Shown piece after piece: positions 10,058 to 18,406 of a stretch of 42,584 nucleotides of DNA (position 1 is its first letter; the number at the start of each line of letters is the position of its first letter). Below the pieces are notes generated by a model. The model saw nothing but the letters and a program-made list of their open reading frames with translations. It ran no database searches and was not told where the DNA came from. The stretch covers positions 1-42,584 of IMG/VR virus record IMGVR_UViG_2563366870_000004. One strand, written 5' to 3'. Origin of the DNA: a virus (taxonomy: Duplodnaviria; Heunggongvirae; Uroviricota; Caudoviricetes). A program made the translations under genes and the position numbers.

Positions 10058-10267
10058 ATGGGATTTTGGTTCGCTCGTACAAAAACGAGGGATAATGCAC
10101 CCAGCCCTCAGGCAAAAAATGCAGAAGTTCCGGCGTCAGCGCAGGTTAACAAGCGTGGTGGAGTATATATCTCATCACAGCAAATTTCTGAGCTTCCTGA
10201 GGTTAAGGAGATGCGTCGTCTCGCTGCTGCAATTGTTAAACAGGATCTTGCCACTGTAAGGAAGTAG
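10058..10267 (+). CDS. Small hydrophilic protein (69 aa), unknown function
   Basis: Strong ribosome-binding site; stop overlaps the start of the downstream membrane protein gene. Confidence 0.45.
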   Translation: MGFWFARTKTRDNAPSPQAKNAEVPASAQVNKRGGVYISSQQISELPEVKEMRRLAAAIVKQDLATVRK

Positions 10268-11133
10268 TGTTGCTAGCTCTTCTAATTATCCCAATCCTGG
10301 TTAGCGGTTATATTATGATAACCGCTAACCAGTATCATTATTTCCGTTTATACCGACACGAAGGCCAGCTTCTTTATATGAAAGTAGCGGCACTAGGTAC
10401 ATATTGCCTTGTTGCATCAGTAATAATTGCAGCCGCTATAAAATATAAATGGCCTGATTTTCACCTAGTTCACGATATGGTGGAAACTTTTAATGTAACA
10501 TCAAAACCAGAAACAGATAGAATTTACATGTGGCTGCTTCTTCTCTCAGCCACATCCATTTGCTTCTCTTTGTGTTATGTGTCTGTTGTGTGGGTGAAAG
10601 ATTTTCTTCTTGGTTGTTTTTATAAACGTGATATTTACGAGCAAAAAACAGAGGCAATGAAGGCCAGAGTACTGCGAAAAACTTACTCGCAAGGTTCTTT
10701 AGACTTACTATTGCTTGATGCGATTGAATCGGATCCTAAACGACCAATGCTGATTACTTTATCATCAAACAAAGTGTATGTTGGAATAATAAATGGTTCT
10801 GGTGAACCAACGGAAAATCAGGGTCCGCATCAGCACATATCTTTTGTTCCTTTAATGTCAGGATACAGGAACAAAGAAAACTTATCTGTCACATTCACTA
10901 ATGCTTATCCAGGAGAAATACAGGTCAAGCGGACTGCAGCAATAAGAGGAATTAGCAGAAAGAAAGTGCCAGGACTTGAGATCATGGTGTCTATTGACGA
11001 AATAAGTTATATATCATGGTTTGATTTTGAAGTATATAAAGCAACAAATAACAAAGTAGAATCCAGGGGGCACGTTATTCGTGTTACCAAAAATGGAAGA
11101 AATATATATCAAAGAAATAGCAAAAAAGAATAG
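10267..11133 (+). CDS. Membrane protein, 3 N-terminal TM helices plus about 170-aa soluble C-terminal domain, unknown function
   Basis: 288 aa; AT-rich codon usage unlike neighbouring virion genes; TAGTG stop-start overlap with the upstream small ORF. Confidence 0.55.
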   Translation: MLLALLIIPILVSGYIMITANQYHYFRLYRHEGQLLYMKVAALGTYCLVASVIIAAAIKYKWPDFHLVHDMVETFNVTSKPETDRIYMWLLLLSATSICFSLCYVSVVWVKDFLLGCFYKRDIYEQKTEAMKARVLRKTYSQGSLDLLLLDAIESDPKRPMLITLSSNKVYVGIINGSGEPTENQGPHQHISFVPLMSGYRNKENLSVTFTNAYPGEIQVKRTAAIRGISRKKVPGLEIMVSIDEISYISWFDFEVYKATNNKVESRGHVIRVTKNGRNIYQRNSKKE

Positions 11134-11225
11134 CCCGCGCTGCTGGCTTTTTTGTGGACGAAACAAAAGTCAGTGCTACACTCATTGACGCCACATTGAG
11201 GTGGCTTATAGATGGAAATTTCACA

Positions 11226-11387
11226 ATGAAAAAAGCATTTGCTGCACTGTTCGTTTTGTTGTCTCTGGTAGCTTCAACTCAGGCCTTTGCCGGTCGTTGT
11301 CAGCACGACAGCGATACTGCCGCTGACGGCTCCCGCTGCGGTGGGCGTTCTGCGGATTCCCACCCGGGCGGCGGTGGCATTCGTTAA
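11226..11387 (+). CDS. Small secreted Cys-containing, Gly-rich peptide (about 53 aa)
   Basis: Internal ATG gives signal peptide MKKAFAALFVLLSLVASTQAFA then mature GRCQHDSD...RCGG...GGGGIR; putative TTGACG-N16-TATAGA promoter upstream and terminator downstream. Confidence 0.35.
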   Translation: MKKAFAALFVLLSLVASTQAFAGRCQHDSDTAADGSRCGGRSADSHPGGGGIR

Positions 11388-11392
11388 AAACA

Positions 11393-11414
11393 AGGCCGCG
11401 AAAGCGGCCTGTTT
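11393..11414. terminator. Bidirectional rho-independent terminator
   Basis: AGGCCGC-GAAA-GCGGCCT hairpin plus T-run between convergent genes. Confidence 0.5.
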
Positions 11415-11416
11415 GA

Positions 11417-12268
11417 TCACTGTGCAGTTTTCGCTGATCGATTTTCAGCTCTAAATTCAAGAACCGTTTCAATATTTCTTTCCTTCAGCATATCAATAAC
11501 ATTTTTATTCATTTGACTATCACTGGTTAATAACTGGTAAACGTTGCTTCTCTCTTTATCAGAATTTTCTTTAACAGCTGCTTTGCATGCCAAATGCTTA
11601 TTGAAATTTTCTACATCGCTAGTACAGGAATTTACGGCTGCTGATGAAATATCAGACGCTGAAGAAACACCATCATCCAAACGTTTTATAGCATTTTCTA
11701 TACATGAGTTAAGGGAATAAACGACAACTGAGCGATACCCTTCAGACGCACACCATTCTAAATTTCTTGAAGGATCGAGTGGTTTTACTTCGCTGGATTG
11801 AATTAACTTGTCAAAAACTGACTTATATTCAATCTGTTTTTTATCTATAGCCCATACTTCAGTAGCTGATTTATAATTCCCCGTATGCCTATTAACATCA
11901 AATCCATGTTTTATAAGCAAATCTGCCCATGAAAGATTTATTGATTCATTGTTATGAGGCCATTTTCCTGTCAGAACCGCCCCCATAGACCCCATATATC
12001 CGCCATATGATGGTATAGCACCATGGCTCAGTAACTTCTCAGCAACCACAGGGCAATTAATTACATAAGAGGCGTAAAGCCCATTCCATAAAGCCCCTCT
12101 ATAGTAATCGCCACGATTAGGTTCTTTTAAGTCGATAGCCTTTGATAATTGTTCACACGTTTTGCATGCATCAAAGTTATCCTTATTGCATTGCAATGAA
12201 CTGGCGGCTGTAGGATTTACAGAGACTATTGAAAGCACTATGCCAAAAAACAAATTTATTTTTTTCAT
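11417..12268 (-). CDS. Secreted protein with possible ankyrin-like repeats, unknown function
   Basis: 283 aa; cleavable-looking signal peptide; AT-rich; start lies within 2 nt of the stop of the upstream internal virion protein gene. Confidence 0.5.
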   Translation of the reverse strand: MKKINLFFGIVLSIVSVNPTAASSLQCNKDNFDACKTCEQLSKAIDLKEPNRGDYYRGALWNGLYASYVINCPVVAEKLLSHGAIPSYGGYMGSMGAVLTGKWPHNNESINLSWADLLIKHGFDVNRHTGNYKSATEVWAIDKKQIEYKSVFDKLIQSSEVKPLDPSRNLEWCASEGYRSVVVYSLNSCIENAIKRLDDGVSSASDISSAAVNSCTSDVENFNKHLACKAAVKENSDKERSNVYQLLTSDSQMNKNVIDMLKERNIETVLEFRAENRSAKTAQ

Positions 12269-12269
12269 C

Positions 12270-15200
12270 CTATTTCATCTGCTCTTCAACTTTATTTAGT
12301 AATGGTGATATCGCCCACAGATTCTGAAAAGGTAGCATTTTACGGACAGCGTGGGTTTGCTGGCTGTCAAATTCTCCGTTAAGTACACCATTTGCAACCG
12401 TCGCGGCATCACCGCCAAGATCAAAGGTAGGACCAAGTAAAGCACCAATAGCATTACGACTCTGAAACCTTGATACCGGAGGCGCACCAAACATCGCGCC
12501 AAGACCAAACCTACCGCCGCTTATGTTCTCAACGGTATTCAGCGGCTCAGAGAGCCAGCCAAGCATTCCGCCCCGGTCGATCCCCTCTTTCACAAGGTTA
12601 TTCCAGCTGTAGTCGATATCGCGACCGCTTAACTTCTGTTTCATCATATAGACCATTGAGCCAAGCGCAATCGTGCCAAGCGCACCAAGATAGAATGAAG
12701 CATCGCCCTGCTGGATACCAGATACCAACACCCTGTTATGCTGTGCGAAGATAAACGTTTTGAACTGCGTGATCATCTTCCAGCCTTCTTTACTAAAAAA
12801 CAGCGGTGTATCACCTACGCCAGGCGTTACAATCACTGAGTCTACATCTTTCAGCACTGCAGACTGGAAAATCTCTCTAGCGAAACGGTCATCCCACAGA
12901 TGACTATGCCCGGTTAACAGCCCGTCCATATCCTCTCCGTGCTTCCCGAATTGCTCCCCGATTCGGCGCAGAACATCTTCATTGATGCCGACCTGTGCCA
13001 TCTTCCGCATTTCACTTTTGGCGAGCGTGCCACCAGCAGAAACCTGGCGAGCCGCGTCAAGTATCCTCGACTGCACTATCATCCCGGACCATGATTTAAG
13101 TGCGCTGTTCCACTGATTCATCAGCGTCCAGTTACCGAATTTCTGCGTCATCCAGTTCAGGCCTCGCTCAGCGGCGCTTCTCCGGCTATAGGGGTCAGTA
13201 AGATCCGCTATAGCCTTTGTACGCGTAGACAGGACATAATCAAGCCCAACGGCCATTTCTCGCAAATCCCTGGTTGCAATTTTCACTGAGTCCATATTTT
13301 TAAGCATGCTTACCATTGGTCCGAGAGATTTTCTCAGGCCATGCTGCATCATCGGTCGCATCAGATCAGTTGCAGCGGAGACGGTCATTCCACCAAGCAA
13401 ACGGAGGAAGTTAATATTCCTAGCAACTCGCCCGGCACGAACAAAGAAACTGCGTGGATCTTGAGGTGCGCCGTAAGTACCAAGCAGTCGGTCACGCATA
13501 GCCGTAATATCCCTAATATCAGCCTCCCGTTGCTTCTCAAGAGCTGCACGTCGTTTAGGTGTTTTAGCCTCTTTTATTAGCCTGGTATATTCCTCACTAA
13601 CCTGACGGATTTGCTCCCCCATATCTTTACGGCCAAACTGCGCAGTCAGCTCAATTTCTGGTGCCACCTGCCGGAGATAACTTTCCATGATGTAGTTAAC
13701 ATCTGATTCAAGAAAATCTTCTATACGCTCATCAGGAATAAGCAGCGTTCGGCTTTTAGTGAAACCAGCCCGACCAACGAGTCTCTCTGGGATAATATCG
13801 GCTGGTACAAGCCCGGAAGGTGCGCCTATTATTTTATTCACGATCTCGTCAGCAGCGTCCTCTGCTTCCTCTCGGGATAGAGGCTCCATCTGCTTCAGTG
13901 CTCGCTCGCGGCTTGCATTCAGCCTTGTGGTTGAATTTGCCCGTTTTTGCAGTCGGCGAAGCTCAGAACGATATTTCCGTGGATTATCCAGCAACTCCAT
14001 ATGGCGCTGATAGACAGGAAGCTCACTCTTTGCCTGCGCTATATCATCAAGGCGTGTTTTAAGGTCAGAGCTTTCTTTCATCATTCTTGCCTGAAGTTTT
14101 TCTGATGAAGTCTCGGCCAACTCTTTTTCTATTCTTGTAAGACGCGCCTGTGTGTCAGTCTCCTGAGATATAAGCTTATTTCGTTTATCCAGTTCTTCCA
14201 TGAGTAGAATTTTTTTACCAGACCATTTCTCCGCTTCAGCGATTTCACTAGCGAGAGCATCAGCGCGCGGTGCTGATTCCTCTGCAGTTTTTAGCAATGA
14301 ATTTATCTTTTCAATTCGCTGACCTGCTTTGTCAGCACCTTTGGCACTAATCCCTTGTATCCAGTTGGCAATTCGCCCTCTGAATTCAGTGCGGTCGGAA
14401 AGTATCTTATCGAACTTATAAATGCGGGGAAGATAACTTTTCGCCGTCACGACATCGATATCCTCAGGAAGGATCCCCAGTTCCTGCATACGGGCTTTTG
14501 TGGTCTCAAAAATGGGGCGGATTCTGGCGGCTGCTTGTGAAACCTCTGGAATATCACTCTGATCACCACGGCGCATAGCCATGCCAACAGCTTCATTGAA
14601 ATCAATAAAGTTCATCCTCTTCACGCCGCGGGCGCTGACAGATTTGCTGTACTGCTGGTAAGCATCACGAGTGGCTTCCATCTGCTTATAAAGCATGGCG
14701 TCGTATTGCTTAATCTTAGTCTCGACTGCCGTAAACGTAGCCAACCCCTCATCATTTTTGGCGAAGAAATAGTTATTTTCGGCAAGCTGCTGGTTAATCT
14801 GACGGGAGACAAGAGATGGTGATTGCGCCAAGCGGCCAGCAGGAGTGACACTCAACGTTTTGTTAGCAAGTCCAAGTCCAGCGAGCTGTTCCTGATCGAG
14901 TGTGGTATTGAAAACCTGAGCTGCACCAATGCTTTGAGGAGAATCCATACCTCGCAAATGATTACCTACTGAGTTAACCACTGCCTCGCGCGCGCTAGGT
15001 CCAGCAAGTAGCTGTGCACCAGCACCAAGGATCCCACCAACGAGAGCATCAACAACAACGTTCGATACGCTCTCCATCGGTGAGCGAGCTTCCTGAGTGG
15101 CCTGCAATGCGGCCTCTGAAGCAACACTGCCAGCAGCATTGGCTAAAGCAAAACGTCCGGCTGTTTCTGCAATACGACCGCCACGAACGACAGCGCCGAA

Positions 15201-15659
15201 CGGAATAAACATAGAAATCGCATTGAATGGATCTGCTAATCTCATTGCTACAGAAGAGACTGTACCAGCAAATCCCAAGCCTGAATTGTATTCCATGTCA
15301 GCTCTCTGCTGATCGATTCGATGTTTAATTGCCATTGTTTCTTCAGGCGAACCGGAGTTGATAAACGAATCTGCAAAATCTTCATAGCCTTTAATATCTG
15401 CTGCATCGTTATCAAATGGGTTATATCCTTCAACCCTGTCAAACTGACTGAAAGGAGCACTGGCAATAAAGCTACCCAGCGTGTTATCTATACGAAATGC
15501 TGCTTGTCTAGACCTTTGAACGCGTTGATCACTGGTAAATGGGTTCACAGCAGAAAGCAAAGAAGGTGTTTCCATATAGAAATTACTGTCATCAGGTGCT
15601 GCTATTTGCTGAATATCCTCGCCAAGCAACTCTTTAGGATTCTGTTCATATATCGGCAT
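12270..15659 (-). CDS. Large internal virion / ejection protein (T7 gp16-like position)
   Basis: 1129 aa, last and largest of three consecutive core-type genes downstream of the tail-tube genes. Confidence 0.7.
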   Translation of the reverse strand: MPIYEQNPKELLGEDIQQIAAPDDSNFYMETPSLLSAVNPFTSDQRVQRSRQAAFRIDNTLGSFIASAPFSQFDRVEGYNPFDNDAADIKGYEDFADSFINSGSPEETMAIKHRIDQQRADMEYNSGLGFAGTVSSVAMRLADPFNAISMFIPFGAVVRGGRIAETAGRFALANAAGSVASEAALQATQEARSPMESVSNVVVDALVGGILGAGAQLLAGPSAREAVVNSVGNHLRGMDSPQSIGAAQVFNTTLDQEQLAGLGLANKTLSVTPAGRLAQSPSLVSRQINQQLAENNYFFAKNDEGLATFTAVETKIKQYDAMLYKQMEATRDAYQQYSKSVSARGVKRMNFIDFNEAVGMAMRRGDQSDIPEVSQAAARIRPIFETTKARMQELGILPEDIDVVTAKSYLPRIYKFDKILSDRTEFRGRIANWIQGISAKGADKAGQRIEKINSLLKTAEESAPRADALASEIAEAEKWSGKKILLMEELDKRNKLISQETDTQARLTRIEKELAETSSEKLQARMMKESSDLKTRLDDIAQAKSELPVYQRHMELLDNPRKYRSELRRLQKRANSTTRLNASRERALKQMEPLSREEAEDAADEIVNKIIGAPSGLVPADIIPERLVGRAGFTKSRTLLIPDERIEDFLESDVNYIMESYLRQVAPEIELTAQFGRKDMGEQIRQVSEEYTRLIKEAKTPKRRAALEKQREADIRDITAMRDRLLGTYGAPQDPRSFFVRAGRVARNINFLRLLGGMTVSAATDLMRPMMQHGLRKSLGPMVSMLKNMDSVKIATRDLREMAVGLDYVLSTRTKAIADLTDPYSRRSAAERGLNWMTQKFGNWTLMNQWNSALKSWSGMIVQSRILDAARQVSAGGTLAKSEMRKMAQVGINEDVLRRIGEQFGKHGEDMDGLLTGHSHLWDDRFAREIFQSAVLKDVDSVIVTPGVGDTPLFFSKEGWKMITQFKTFIFAQHNRVLVSGIQQGDASFYLGALGTIALGSMVYMMKQKLSGRDIDYSWNNLVKEGIDRGGMLGWLSEPLNTVENISGGRFGLGAMFGAPPVSRFQSRNAIGALLGPTFDLGGDAATVANGVLNGEFDSQQTHAVRKMLPFQNLWAISPLLNKVEEQMK

Positions 15660-18406
15660 TATTTGCCCCCTGCGTATATATTGCTCGGAAGGTAATTGGC
15701 TGAACCATAACCGAATGGTTTGGTCAGATCTGGAGGAGTATATCCATCTTTATTGCTGAACTGCGGCAGCGGATTGCCTTCTCTCCGCACTCTAGCCTCA
15801 TCAACACGCTGTTGCTGTAACTGAATGGTTTGCCTGTACATTGGAGATGTCAGTTGATCCGGCTTGAAACGAACAGGGAGACCATTTTCTCCAATATAAT
15901 TTCTCGGTTCTATCGCTCCGTTTGCGTCAGGCTGTAAAACCATAACAGCATAACTCCTATCCCTTGCCGTAAGGCCATCAGAAACAAGTATTAAGTCCGT
16001 ATCACTGCGAGGACCGCCAAAGGATTTTGATTTAAGCTCGCGTTTTTCCTGCTCCCACTGCCCCTGTATCCAGTTACCAGCACCATTATTTACTCCGTAC
16101 AATGCCTCAGGTGCATACTTCATAACCTCTGCTTTGCCATTAACCGTAGAAACTCCCCAGGTGGTTCTGATCATGGCATTGGTCATTTTCTCAGCCTGTT
16201 CTGCATCGCCACCTGTCTGTACAAAGTTAGCATCGTAAATTGTCTGGTAATCTCGCTGATAGGCCGCATTTGATTTTCCTGGATCGGTAATATCCGGAGA
16301 CCACGAACCAAAGGAAGTCAGACTGCTGGCGTTATTTTGTGCAGCAGTTGCCCTCGCCGCGACATATTTTTTGTCTCGCATGGCAGTGGAAAGCATCTGT
16401 TTCATTCGGTCATCCTGTTGGAACACCTGGCTGTAAGCCATATCAACAGCCTTATCCTCCGGCACGCCAGCGCGGGAATAATCGTAAACCTTGCCGTAAA
16501 ATGCCATCGTACTTTTATCAAGTGTTGCCGCTGCCGCCGGATTATTATCGAATAACTGACCGTAGAATTTTGCCATCGGGACAACCAGCGCAGGATCTCT
16601 TGATGTTGCTCCACTGTTAAGCATTGTTTTAACCTGAGTTGGTATCATGCCGCTTTTAGTTGTGACGGTGACCAGTGTATTGATGCTCTGCGGATCAGAT
16701 ATGGAAAACGAAGGCGCGATATCCTGCGCGAAATAACGGTCTACCGCTGCCTGATTGTTTTTGTCGTTCGTGTCCAGCGGGAAGTTATTTTGCATTGAAG
16801 ACACGAACCTGTTTCTTCCCTGCTGAATCTCCCACTCCCTATCCATCTCTTTAAATTTGGCCTGCATTTTCTCCCAGCGTTGCTGGTTAGCAGCAAATCC
16901 AGGAGCGTTTGGATCCTGTGGACGTAAACGTTCAAGAATGTCTTGTCGTCCTTCTGGAGTGAGGTCTTTAGCGGCACCAATGACACCTCCATATTGTATC
17001 TGCGCCTGCATATCCTTCCACTTCATAGCGCCAATGCGCGGACCATTGGCCCGGATAAAATCGTCCTCAGAAGGTAACTTCTCAGGTTTCAATCCTTCAT
17101 CAAGGGCTGAATATGCATCTTTAACTACGGTGCTAAGCTGGTCCGCATACTGCTGGCGGTACTGATTTCTCAGCTCATTAGCCTGCCTCAATGCCTGTAT
17201 TTGCATTTGAGGGCTCATAGCATCAAATGCCGCATTGCCCGTATAACGCTTAGGTGAATCAAGGTTAGTTAGACCAAGGGCTGCCGAGATACCAGTTTCA
17301 AGCTGTTCGGTGCTATAAGGCATACTGCCATTTTCGTGTTTAATAATCCCAGCACATAAAGCAGCTAGTGTCTTTGGGTTAGAGATATCAAGCTGATCAT
17401 TCTCCCCAACACCAAGCTCACCACACAATGCCCTAATATAAGCATCAGTATTATTACCATCACTAGCCGGAGCATAGCGATTAACAATCTCGCTAACGGT
17501 GTCATAGCCTTGACGCTGGTAAGACAACATATTTTTACCCAACGCGCGGATTCCATGCTCAGGGGTAGCAAACGTTGCAAAACGTCCATCGCTACCGATC
17601 TGACCTTCCCACGGGTTAGATTTGCTCGCTTCAATATTACCAGGGTTATTATTACGTAAACCACGAGCATCCAATGAATTACCATGTGATATTGCACGAC
17701 TCACACCACCAAGATCCCCTGGCTCTCCATTAACCTGAAGAAACTCGTTGTATTTTTGAGCGATATTTCCTATCCATGCTTGCTGCCCCATTTGTTCCTT
17801 GAGCTGAGTTTTCTGCTGAACACGCCACTCATCAGGAAGCCCATGCGCATCAGCGTATTGATCAATAGATTCAAATCGCTGCTTGGCTAAATCGACAAAT
17901 GCTTGGTTATCGCTATATAGCCCCGCAGACTGAGTGACAGCCAATGCATTTCCTGACAAATACGTTTGATCTTGGAATTGCTGAAACTGCCCAACTTCAT
18001 ATCGACGTGCCTGATTGTAATAAGACTGCATAGACTGCTGGAGTTGAAAGGATAATTTATTCCTTTCCTCACTTTCAGGGATTGAGCCTAATAATGCCTG
18101 AGCCCTTTCCTGCATATTTTTCATAACAGCGTCACTCTGACCAAGAGCGTTTTTACCCTGTTTAGAAATCAGCCCATTTTCAGGGTTGTTAATCTGGTCA
18201 TCTGCAAATTGGTTAAATTGCAGTAACGCCTCCTGGGCCATAGCAACATTCGCTTTCTGCCTGGCTTCACCATATGCCACCGCATACTGATCTGCGACAT
18301 TCGCCAGCACCTGACCTGCTTGAGGAACATCGAAGGTCTGAAAACCACCGGTTTGCACACCACGACTTTGCACCTGGCGTCCGGATGTAGTAGGAACAAC
18401 AGGCAT
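15659..18406 (-). CDS. Internal virion protein (T7 gp15-like position), possibly with a cell-wall-degrading domain
   Basis: 915 aa; central motif GLRNNNPGNI...YAPASDGN; enzymatic assignment is tentative. Confidence 0.65.
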   Translation of the reverse strand: MPVVPTTSGRQVQSRGVQTGGFQTFDVPQAGQVLANVADQYAVAYGEARQKANVAMAQEALLQFNQFADDQINNPENGLISKQGKNALGQSDAVMKNMQERAQALLGSIPESEERNKLSFQLQQSMQSYYNQARRYEVGQFQQFQDQTYLSGNALAVTQSAGLYSDNQAFVDLAKQRFESIDQYADAHGLPDEWRVQQKTQLKEQMGQQAWIGNIAQKYNEFLQVNGEPGDLGGVSRAISHGNSLDARGLRNNNPGNIEASKSNPWEGQIGSDGRFATFATPEHGIRALGKNMLSYQRQGYDTVSEIVNRYAPASDGNNTDAYIRALCGELGVGENDQLDISNPKTLAALCAGIIKHENGSMPYSTEQLETGISAALGLTNLDSPKRYTGNAAFDAMSPQMQIQALRQANELRNQYRQQYADQLSTVVKDAYSALDEGLKPEKLPSEDDFIRANGPRIGAMKWKDMQAQIQYGGVIGAAKDLTPEGRQDILERLRPQDPNAPGFAANQQRWEKMQAKFKEMDREWEIQQGRNRFVSSMQNNFPLDTNDKNNQAAVDRYFAQDIAPSFSISDPQSINTLVTVTTKSGMIPTQVKTMLNSGATSRDPALVVPMAKFYGQLFDNNPAAAATLDKSTMAFYGKVYDYSRAGVPEDKAVDMAYSQVFQQDDRMKQMLSTAMRDKKYVAARATAAQNNASSLTSFGSWSPDITDPGKSNAAYQRDYQTIYDANFVQTGGDAEQAEKMTNAMIRTTWGVSTVNGKAEVMKYAPEALYGVNNGAGNWIQGQWEQEKRELKSKSFGGPRSDTDLILVSDGLTARDRSYAVMVLQPDANGAIEPRNYIGENGLPVRFKPDQLTSPMYRQTIQLQQQRVDEARVRREGNPLPQFSNKDGYTPPDLTKPFGYGSANYLPSNIYAGGK

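Follow-up and report, generated by a model that had tools for sequence, protein, structure and literature searches.

The locus examined here lies in a 42,584-nucleotide stretch of DNA (positions 1 to 42,584 of IMG/VR record IMGVR_UViG_2563366870_000004), hereafter the window, which consists of E. coli chromosome with an epsilon15/phiV10-like prophage beside yfgH/yfgI. Two genes were studied, one for a protein of 283 amino acids (aa) and the other a convergent open reading frame (ORF) of 53 aa, and both sit at the junction of a cargo region and the 3' end of the virion operon. A preliminary description had proposed the pair as secreted accessory proteins and had placed both ORFs correctly. The 283-aa protein is the main subject, and the features of its gene and of the two virion genes that precede it are as follows.

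11417..12268, - strand: gene for the 283-aa protein, a two-domain protein predicted to be exported (phrog_6118, unannotated; 'hypothetical protein' at NCBI)
about 12203-12268, - strand: its putative signal peptide, a signal-peptide-like N-terminus
11789..12196, - strand: its N-domain, residues about 25-160, with four Cys; stand-alone homologues of about 160-170 aa have signal peptides
11420..11776, - strand: its C-domain, residues about 165-283, helical, with a predicted local distance difference test score (pLDDT) >90; stand-alone homologues of 110-155 aa also appear exported
12270..15659, - strand: gene for the 1129-aa internal virion protein (IVP) IVP-D, homologue of T7 gp16 and epsilon15 gp17 (phrog_342, E=3e-233)
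15659..18406, - strand: gene for a 915-aa internal virion (ejection) protein, two genes upstream of the 283-aa gene (phrog_1044, phrog_873, phrog_7182)
17222..17689, - strand: Enc34-type (PHA02564) peptidoglycan-hydrolase domain of the 915-aa protein, residues about 240-395, with the motif RNNNPGNI and a conserved Tyr and Glu

The ATG of the 283-aa gene is located 1 nt past the TAG of the gene for the 1129-aa IVP-D, the designation assigned to gp17 in epsilon15 (PMC4819975). The G+C content of the 283-aa gene is 0.367 (36.7%); that of the adjacent gene is 0.482 and that of the window as a whole 0.480. The earlier account of an AT-rich gene abutting an internal virion protein gene was borne out. 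Co-expression with the late genes is likely, via translational abutment to the IVP-D gene, and a promoter scan gave none from which the 283-aa gene would be expressed in a lysogen. Homologues (39-100% identity) were confined to the Enterobacterales, namely E. coli, Klebsiella, Serratia, Morganella and Providencia, and in every context read the gene was the first after an IVP-D gene of roughly 1130 aa (937 aa in one locus) in an epsilon15-like prophage. A 1.3-kb query spanning both genes was matched by about 499 E. coli genomes; 72 of these covered most of the query and were counted as carriers of the 283-aa gene, representing about 1.3% of the 5426 complete E. coli genomes.

Both products look Sec-exported, in agreement with what had been claimed for them. 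The 283-aa protein begins with MKK, INLFFGIVLSIVSV and NPTAA-SS, the hyphen marking the predicted cleavage site, and a signal-peptide-like N-terminus was present in almost all of its homologues, though identity is low there. A basic n-region, a hydrophobic core of 10-15 residues and small residues at -3/-1, applied as a sequence heuristic for Sec export with cleavage by signal peptidase I (SPase I), were found in both proteins and in almost all aligned homologues. The first Cys of the 283-aa protein is preceded by Gln and does not fit the lipobox [LVI][ASTVI][GAS]C, while eight Cys are invariant in the mature protein (27, 35, 38, 72, 173, 189, 215 and 228). It is from the signal-peptide features and the invariant, even number of Cys that we infer export of the 283-aa protein. 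A structural role in the virion would not be expected for a Sec-exported, disulfide-bonded protein, as the capsid assembles in the cytoplasm.

Searches of Pfam, NCBIfam and PADLOC gave no family for either protein, Foldseek searches against BFVD and PDB gave no significant match for either, and a PDB sequence search with the single 283-aa protein returned sub-threshold DARPin matches only. The AlphaFold model of the 283-aa protein, generated from a 14-sequence alignment, is all-helical with a mean pLDDT of 76, and the C-terminal 110 residues exceed 90. An exhaustive profile search over 1.84 billion representatives resolved the protein into a fusion of two families, each of which also occurs stand-alone; nearly all members of both stand-alone families carry a signal peptide, and neither the N-domain nor the C-domain has a Pfam model.

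The N-domain is characterized by the motif GDYYRGAxWNGLYxAYVxNC...GAxPxxGG...KWPHNNxxINxxWAxLL. The profile of the 283-aa family reaches canonical ankyrin proteins in which Pfam recognizes 11-20 Ank repeats (P0115, E=5.5e-9), and the N-domain profile matches ankyrin and designed ankyrin-like proteins in the PDB at E=3e-4 to 2e-3. No Pfam model, those for Ank included, gave a match at E<=1 in any of 14 family members. The ankyrin search that had been suggested for this protein was therefore positive at the profile level and negative against the Pfam Ank model. On sequence grounds the N-domain is best described as a divergent ankyrin relative and not as a classified member of the Ank family, the similarity being weak but consistent. 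Tai5a of S. rhizophila was considered as a member of the N-domain family and rejected, its sequence being unrelated.

The C-domain carries the motif W..C....LDDG[IV]SPASDIA..V...C, in which LDDGxSPASDIA lies between two Cys, and gave no match in the PDB. A distant homologue, P0132, has a lipobox-like LYG-C. Stand-alone C-domain genes in prophages were found directly downstream of a CI-like repressor (locus L022) and in a moron region (L021). Exclusion and conversion genes typically occupy such positions, and this was counted in favour of the function proposed below. An LprI/DUF1311-type lysozyme inhibitor was considered for the C-domain and discarded, as no Pfam match was obtained in ten stand-alone members and no PDB match was found.

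The 915-aa ejection protein contains an Enc34-type domain, the profile of which matched PDB entries 7Q47 ('Endolysin', E=1.7e-29) and 9VVP (Gp29, E=3e-45). In an alignment of the domain (A7), Y88, E123 and the RNxNPGN motif were invariant. The Enc34 catalytic domain (PHA02564) degrades Gram-negative peptidoglycan and has a lysozyme-like alpha-lobe fold, with Glu131 as the catalytic residue and Tyr95 also important (PMC8943055). Y88 and E123 probably correspond to Tyr95 and Glu131 of Enc34, an equivalence read from the motif and not from a residue-by-residue alignment. A single-sequence model of the domain was mediocre (pLDDT 64) and was not used for fold search. The Enc34-type domain is held by 812 of 50,697 phage records and is the endolysin in many phages. 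Prophages of Morganella and Providencia (L005-L007 at 10247-10723 and 1-2574; L057, L058) carry it twice: a 158-aa Enc34-type endolysin lies behind two holins, the same domain is found inside the IVP, and a 270-aa homologue of the 283-aa protein is also encoded.

The association between the 283-aa protein and the Enc34-type domain was read directly from gene neighbourhoods. The first link came from stand-alone N-domain genes in two Bdellovibrio-like metagenome-assembled genomes (MAGs), which adjoin a gene with an RNxNPGN motif; the RNxNPGN region of these MAG genes and residues 243-395 of the 915-aa protein have their matches in one and the same part of phrog_873. All examined loci with the two-domain gene had an Enc34-type domain in the IVP encoded two genes upstream. 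These loci comprise the window, nine genomic or phage loci (L001, L003, L005-L009, L024-L026; some near-duplicates) and 30 IMG/VR loci, and identity to the window protein extends down to 39-41% in Morganella and Providencia. Among about 15 stand-alone N-domain loci with usable flanks, the gene directly adjoins an Enc34-type gene in seven and shares an operon with one in another. In the shared operon (L017) the N-domain gene belongs to the tail operon of a prophage whose tape-measure protein carries the Enc34-type domain. The partner therefore takes four architectures, namely a podovirus IVP, a tape-measure protein, a small fusion with DUF3892 and a small protein with a His-rich tail, and gene orders vary. 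The small Enc34-type partners lack a signal peptide and the N-domain proteins have one, which is the pattern of an effector-immunity pair, and the stand-alone N-domain genes show the adjacency in unrelated genomes expected of such pairs.

The small Enc34-like+DUF3892 genes were found beside an exported N-domain gene in Bdellovibrio-like MAGs and one metagenome contig, L061 (L014 5267-5926, L015 6395-7180, L016 4842-5507, L061 72-830), in tandem or convergent according to the genome. In three further loci (L062 9938-11031, L067 4141-5171, L068 9778-10807) the gene for an exported N-domain protein precedes one for an Enc34-type hydrolase that ends in a His-rich tail (HEDRSHHHHH...). The L068 cassette lies 1.3 kb from a tssH/ClpV gene (1274 bits) of a type VI secretion system (T6SS), and the three cassettes look like undescribed effector-immunity pairs.

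The reading that we tentatively favour, at somewhat less than an even chance, is that the 283-aa protein acts in the periplasm as an immunity or inhibitor protein of the virion-borne Enc34-type hydrolase. The gene anatomy, conservation, two-domain architecture, identity of the Enc34-type domain and neighbourhood association are as described above; the step from these to function is guilt by association, through which export, disulfides, binding, inhibition and biological role would be envisaged as follows. The protein would be made with the late virion genes, exported via Sec and, after loss of the signal peptide, would fold in the periplasm, probably with four disulfides. There the ankyrin-like N-domain would bind and block the Enc34-type domain of the 915-aa ejection protein in epsilon15-like virions, and virions adsorbing to an infected or induced cell would be unable to open the wall. 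Superinfecting phages would thereby be excluded and the cell shielded from lysis from without, as with T4 Spackle against the gp5 lysozyme. The inhibitor could also protect against the Enc34-type toxins of competitors, and the fused C-domain would constitute a second periplasmic module.

A Spackle-like role is the simplest because the phage carries an Enc34-type domain in its own ejection protein; the combination that defines this class, an exported phage protein and a virion-borne muralytic domain in one phage, was found here, export being predicted. The evidence points to one particular target in the periplasm, the Enc34-type muralytic domain of the ejection protein, and not to receptor masking or O-antigen conversion. 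Carriage of the 283-aa gene in 72 of 5426 genomes, against about 499 with the neighbouring region, fits optional exclusion better than a morphogenetic function. The roles suggested previously were lysogenic conversion or outer-membrane and exclusion functions for the pair; an exclusion-type role is the best supported of these, while a generic conversion or outer-membrane pair could not be sustained, as the two genes are independent.

Spackle is periplasmic and inhibits the T4 gp5 lysozyme (PMC7677548). Like the 283-aa protein as predicted here, T4 Spackle (gp61.3) is phage-encoded, Sec-exported, all-helical and disulfide-containing, and its logic is that of the proposal: with an inhibitor matched to the muralytic domain of its own virion, the phage excludes superinfection and makes the cell resistant to lysis from without (PMC7677548, PMC7650644). 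The 283-aa protein and Spackle are related neither in sequence nor in fold. Spackle is a 97-aa single domain, made early by a lytic myovirus and directed at a T4-lysozyme-type domain, whereas the present protein is a 283-aa fusion of an ankyrin-like and a second domain, encoded in the late operon of a temperate podovirus, with a presumed Enc34-type target.

The periplasmic ankyrin protein Bd3460 sterically blocks the DD-endopeptidases of Bdellovibrio and, like the N-domain proteins, is a signal-peptide ankyrin-type protein encoded beside a wall hydrolase (PMC4686830). In MAGs of the Bdellovibrionota the stand-alone N-domain genes adjoin a wall-hydrolase-like gene, as Bd3460 does its target. 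Bd3460 has six canonical ankyrin repeats and a DD-endopeptidase target, whereas in the N-domain the repeats are highly divergent and number about two or three, four Cys are conserved, and the link is to a glycosidase-type (lysozyme-fold) domain.

Several families of small exported proteins neutralize a specific periplasmic peptidoglycan hydrolase (Tae/Tai, Tge/Tgi, Ssp1-Rap1a, Ivy, PliC/MliC and PliG), and these are encoded in bicistronic cassettes or as orphans on mobile elements. The T6SS immunity and lysozyme-inhibitor families resemble the 283-aa protein in its proposed role, and a Rap1a homologue occupies the equivalent slot of a Klebsiella prophage; the 283-aa protein gave no match to the Tae/Tai, Tge/Tgi, Rap1a, Ivy, PliC/MliC or PliG families. 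The proposed system would work like Spackle, Bd3460 and the T6SS immunity proteins, but belongs to none of those families. The Klebsiella prophage in question is epsilon15-like (L011 6238-7094), and its slot after IVP-D holds the Rap1a-family homologue together with a 134-aa protein, both with signal peptides. The 134-aa protein has a weak C-domain-like motif and a weak relation to the C-domain (hhalign probability 37%), and the ejection protein of this phage has an SLT domain and not an Enc34-type one. The Rap1a-like protein had no informative phage relatives.

Several observations weigh against inhibition of the virion hydrolase. All two-domain copies belong to one phage lineage, and because of this their perfect co-occurrence with the Enc34-type IVP counts as one evolutionary event. 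Many epsilon15-like phages, SPN1S and phiv142-3 among them, have an Enc34-type IVP and lack the 283-aa gene. In Klebsiella phage ST512-KPC3phi13.3 (L074 8380-8994), the IVP of which is Enc34-type, the slot is occupied by an unrelated 204-aa protein with no signal peptide. Because this phage holds an unrelated, non-exported protein there, the slot after IVP-D is a general cargo hotspot, and the idea that it always holds an inhibitor matched to the hydrolase type of the IVP is weakened. Expression from the late operon only gives no exclusion in a quiescent lysogen. Tai5a, which is known to give immunity to an Enc34-like T6SS effector, is unrelated in sequence. Finally, about half of the stand-alone N-domain loci (L019, L027, L028, L060, L063-L065) have no Enc34-type gene nearby; orphan immunity genes are commonly found with no toxin gene in the vicinity.

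An unlikely alternative, but one that draws on much of the same evidence, is orphan interbacterial immunity acquired by lysogenic conversion, with the 283-aa protein shielding the host from Enc34-type toxins of predators or of competitors' T6SS and the link to the phage's own ejection protein incidental. Enc34-like T6SS effector domains have been described, and exported immunity proteins exist for them (PMC13340143). The cassettes of N-domain and Enc34-type genes resemble effector-immunity pairs, with a signal peptide on the N-domain partner only and one cassette beside tssH, the Rap1a homologue in the Klebsiella slot belongs to a family of T6SS amidase immunity proteins (PF18602), and orphan N-domain genes occur in ordinary chromosomal contexts. 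The late-gene position and apparent late expression, with no lysogenic promoter in the scan, do not favour such a role. Moreover, wherever a phage has the gene, the unrelated tailed prophage at L017 included, one of its own virion proteins carries a matching hydrolase domain, which would be unexpected if the targets were foreign only.

There is a similarly low probability that the protein is generic exported cargo, such as an adhesin or a stress or host-interaction factor, and that its association with the Enc34-type domain reflects shared mobile-element ancestry. Such a protein would be consistent with the absence of any significant structural or family match that gives a function, with the unrelated cargo that the slot holds in other phages, and with the half of the stand-alone loci that have no hydrolase. 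Yet direct adjacency recurs over the four partner architectures and varied gene orders, which is hard to obtain by common descent alone, and there is direct precedent for ankyrin-type periplasmic inhibitors of wall hydrolases.

The third alternative, a lysis or envelope regulator which tunes lysis timing or protects the envelope late in infection (antiholin-like or endolysin-buffering) and does not act on incoming phages, would suit a protein that appears late-expressed and periplasmic and the pairing of an Enc34-type endolysin with a homologue in Morganella and related prophages, and T4 has periplasmic lysis regulators such as the RI antiholin; it is very unlikely, since most related prophages dispense with the gene, and since the endolysin in the window and in Klebsiella is GH19 and not Enc34-type, because of which endolysin inhibition cannot be the common function.

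Of the broader consequences of hydrolase inhibition by the 283-aa protein, one is possible but rather doubtful: that the N-domain represents an undescribed periplasmic immunity family for Enc34-type hydrolases, shared by temperate phages, T6SS-type cassettes and Bdellovibrio-like predators. The literature searched mentions no inhibitor of PHA02564 enzymes, and this would be the first known for the recently defined Enc34-type class. If so, phages would aim the N-domain family at hydrolase domains of their own ejection and tape-measure proteins in the manner of Spackle, virion muralytic domains and interbacterial toxins would draw on one inhibitor pool, and phage-phage exclusion and interbacterial immunity would be linked by one protein family. 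The post-IVP-D slot of epsilon15-like phages would be a swap site for periplasmic neutralizers (contents observed: ankyrin-like+C-domain; Rap1a-like + C-domain-like). To our knowledge, T4 Spackle is essentially the only case in which exclusion via direct inhibition of a virion muralytic enzyme has been worked out in molecular terms, and a second, unrelated inhibitor family in temperate podoviruses would show that the strategy is general. The Enc34-type class is being explored as an enzybiotic, and a natural resistance determinant in prophages of E. coli and Klebsiella would therefore be of practical relevance. A 'hypothetical protein' and a widespread pair of exported domains that lack annotation would also receive a function open to testing.

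The small ORF lies on the opposite strand, and its features and those of the flanking control regions are as follows.

11226..11387, + strand: small ORF of 53 aa (phrog_14503; NCBI name 'transmembrane anchored protein')
about 11226-11291, + strand: its putative signal peptide, a signal-peptide-like N-terminus
11292-11384, + strand: its predicted mature peptide of 31 aa, GRCQHDSDTAADGSRCGGRSADSHPGGGGIR
11174..11212, + strand: candidate promoter elements for the small ORF, putative, as read from the sequence
11393..11410, both strands: bidirectional intrinsic-terminator hairpin GGCCGCGAAAGCGGCC between the convergent genes, from folding and from the phiV10 annotation

The product begins with MKK, AFAALFVLLSLVAST and QAFA-GRC (hyphen as above). 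The n-region has two basic residues, the hydrophobic core is 15 residues long, the highest Kyte-Doolittle hydropathy of any 10-residue segment is 2.9, and an AXA site follows residue 22 (AFA-G); the signal peptide that had been proposed for the small ORF thus has the Sec-type features, by the same heuristic. The mature part contains two Cys, the first of which is three residues past the AFA site and is preceded by Arg, and there is accordingly no fit to [LVI][ASTVI][GAS]C. The ORF is a full-length member of phrog_14503 (E=1.8e-39) with 54 homologue clusters, all of which are named 'transmembrane anchored protein' at NCBI, a name that reflects the predicted hydrophobic N-terminus only and under which a literature search found nothing. 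The clusters come from E. coli, Shigella, Salmonella, Klebsiella, Citrobacter, Cronobacter, Pectobacterium and Dickeya, and identity is 91-98% to E. coli entries and 66-89% to the other aligned members. In 24 aligned members C25, C38 and the core DGSRCGGRSADS are invariant while the signal peptide drifts. When copies from E. coli, Klebsiella and Pectobacterium are compared, the proportion of synonymous differences (pS) in the mature region is about 0.7, which is saturated, that of nonsynonymous differences (pN) is 0.05-0.11, and pN/pS is about 0.1. From the saturated pS and low pN it follows that the small ORF is a real, translated gene, the mature part of which is under strong purifying selection. 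Codon 46 (11361-11363) encodes His in the window and Arg in at least 90% of the family (DSRPGG).

Prophages of the Enterobacterales widely carry this family. In about 427 of the 499 E. coli genomes the small ORF is present and the 283-aa gene is not, and the small ORF is also found in other phage types; it adjoins Ant/Arc in TL-2011b and Rap1a-like genes in Klebsiella, and in Pectobacterium it is located where a siphovirus-type tail operon ends, always convergent with the late operon and with a terminator in common. It is a separate, self-contained moron, independent of the 283-aa gene. Our best guess is a peptide active at the envelope, possibly expressed in the lysogen; a 31-aa disulfide-looped peptide would be delivered to the periplasm, or anchored via an uncleaved signal. 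NCBIfam matches to HxsA3 (E=0.031) and MarB (E=0.16) were far below cut-offs and were dismissed. An Excalibur/EF-hand-like Ca-binding motif in the peptide (DSDTAADGSRC) was also rejected, its spacing not fitting DxDxDGxxCE and no Pfam match being found at E<=1.

The small ORF had been credited with its own promoter and terminator. The terminator was upheld as a shared element: at 11393-11410 either strand folds into a stable hairpin (-17.5 and -16.5 kcal/mol, z about -3.7), which is annotated as a terminator at the equivalent site in phiV10 and is kept in Klebsiella. A good T-run is present on the - strand only, and the hairpin therefore mainly terminates the late operon and the 283-aa gene. 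The promoter was not upheld beyond sub-threshold candidates, which are weak (TTGACG at 11185-11190 and TATAGA at 11207-11212, 16 nt apart, or TGcTACACT at 11174-11182), and a scan at consensus threshold gave no promoter at 11174-11212. A hairpin of GCCAC and GTGGC separated by 6 nt (11190-11205) lies between the promoter candidate and the small ORF. It has a G-U variant in Klebsiella, and pairing is kept in Pectobacterium by a compensatory A-T to G-C change. It folds weakly (z=-1.3) and may be a 5' untranslated region element or an operator.

The remaining landmarks of the window are as follows.

485-1558: yfgH/yfgI, chromosomal E. coli genes
1755-3576: Rz-like, GH19 endolysin and holin genes
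3659-5767: tailspike
41334-42584: integrase, at the far end of the prophage

The tailspike is followed by the cargo region, which has genes on both strands and includes an ISL3 element, and this in turn is followed by the virion operon on the - strand. In the part of the cargo region that separates the tailspike from the Bro/Ant genes, a transposase gene of the ISL3 family (6574-7794) adjoins a DUF1706 gene (6037-6555); the two (6037-7794) are probably an insertion sequence (IS) insertion, with DUF1706 possibly a passenger gene. A cargo gene at 8137-8865 (- strand, phrog_6762) encodes a 242-aa protein, the C-terminus of which has repeated zinc-ribbon, endonuclease VII or Lar-like motifs. A perfect palindrome with a 15-bp stem (CTGGTTAGCGGTTAT ATTATG ATAACCGCTAACCAG, 10297-10332) falls inside the first 25 codons of a 288-aa membrane ORF (10267-11133, phrog_3630), and may serve as an operator or terminate transcription from upstream, or its presence may mean that translation really starts at the internal ATG.

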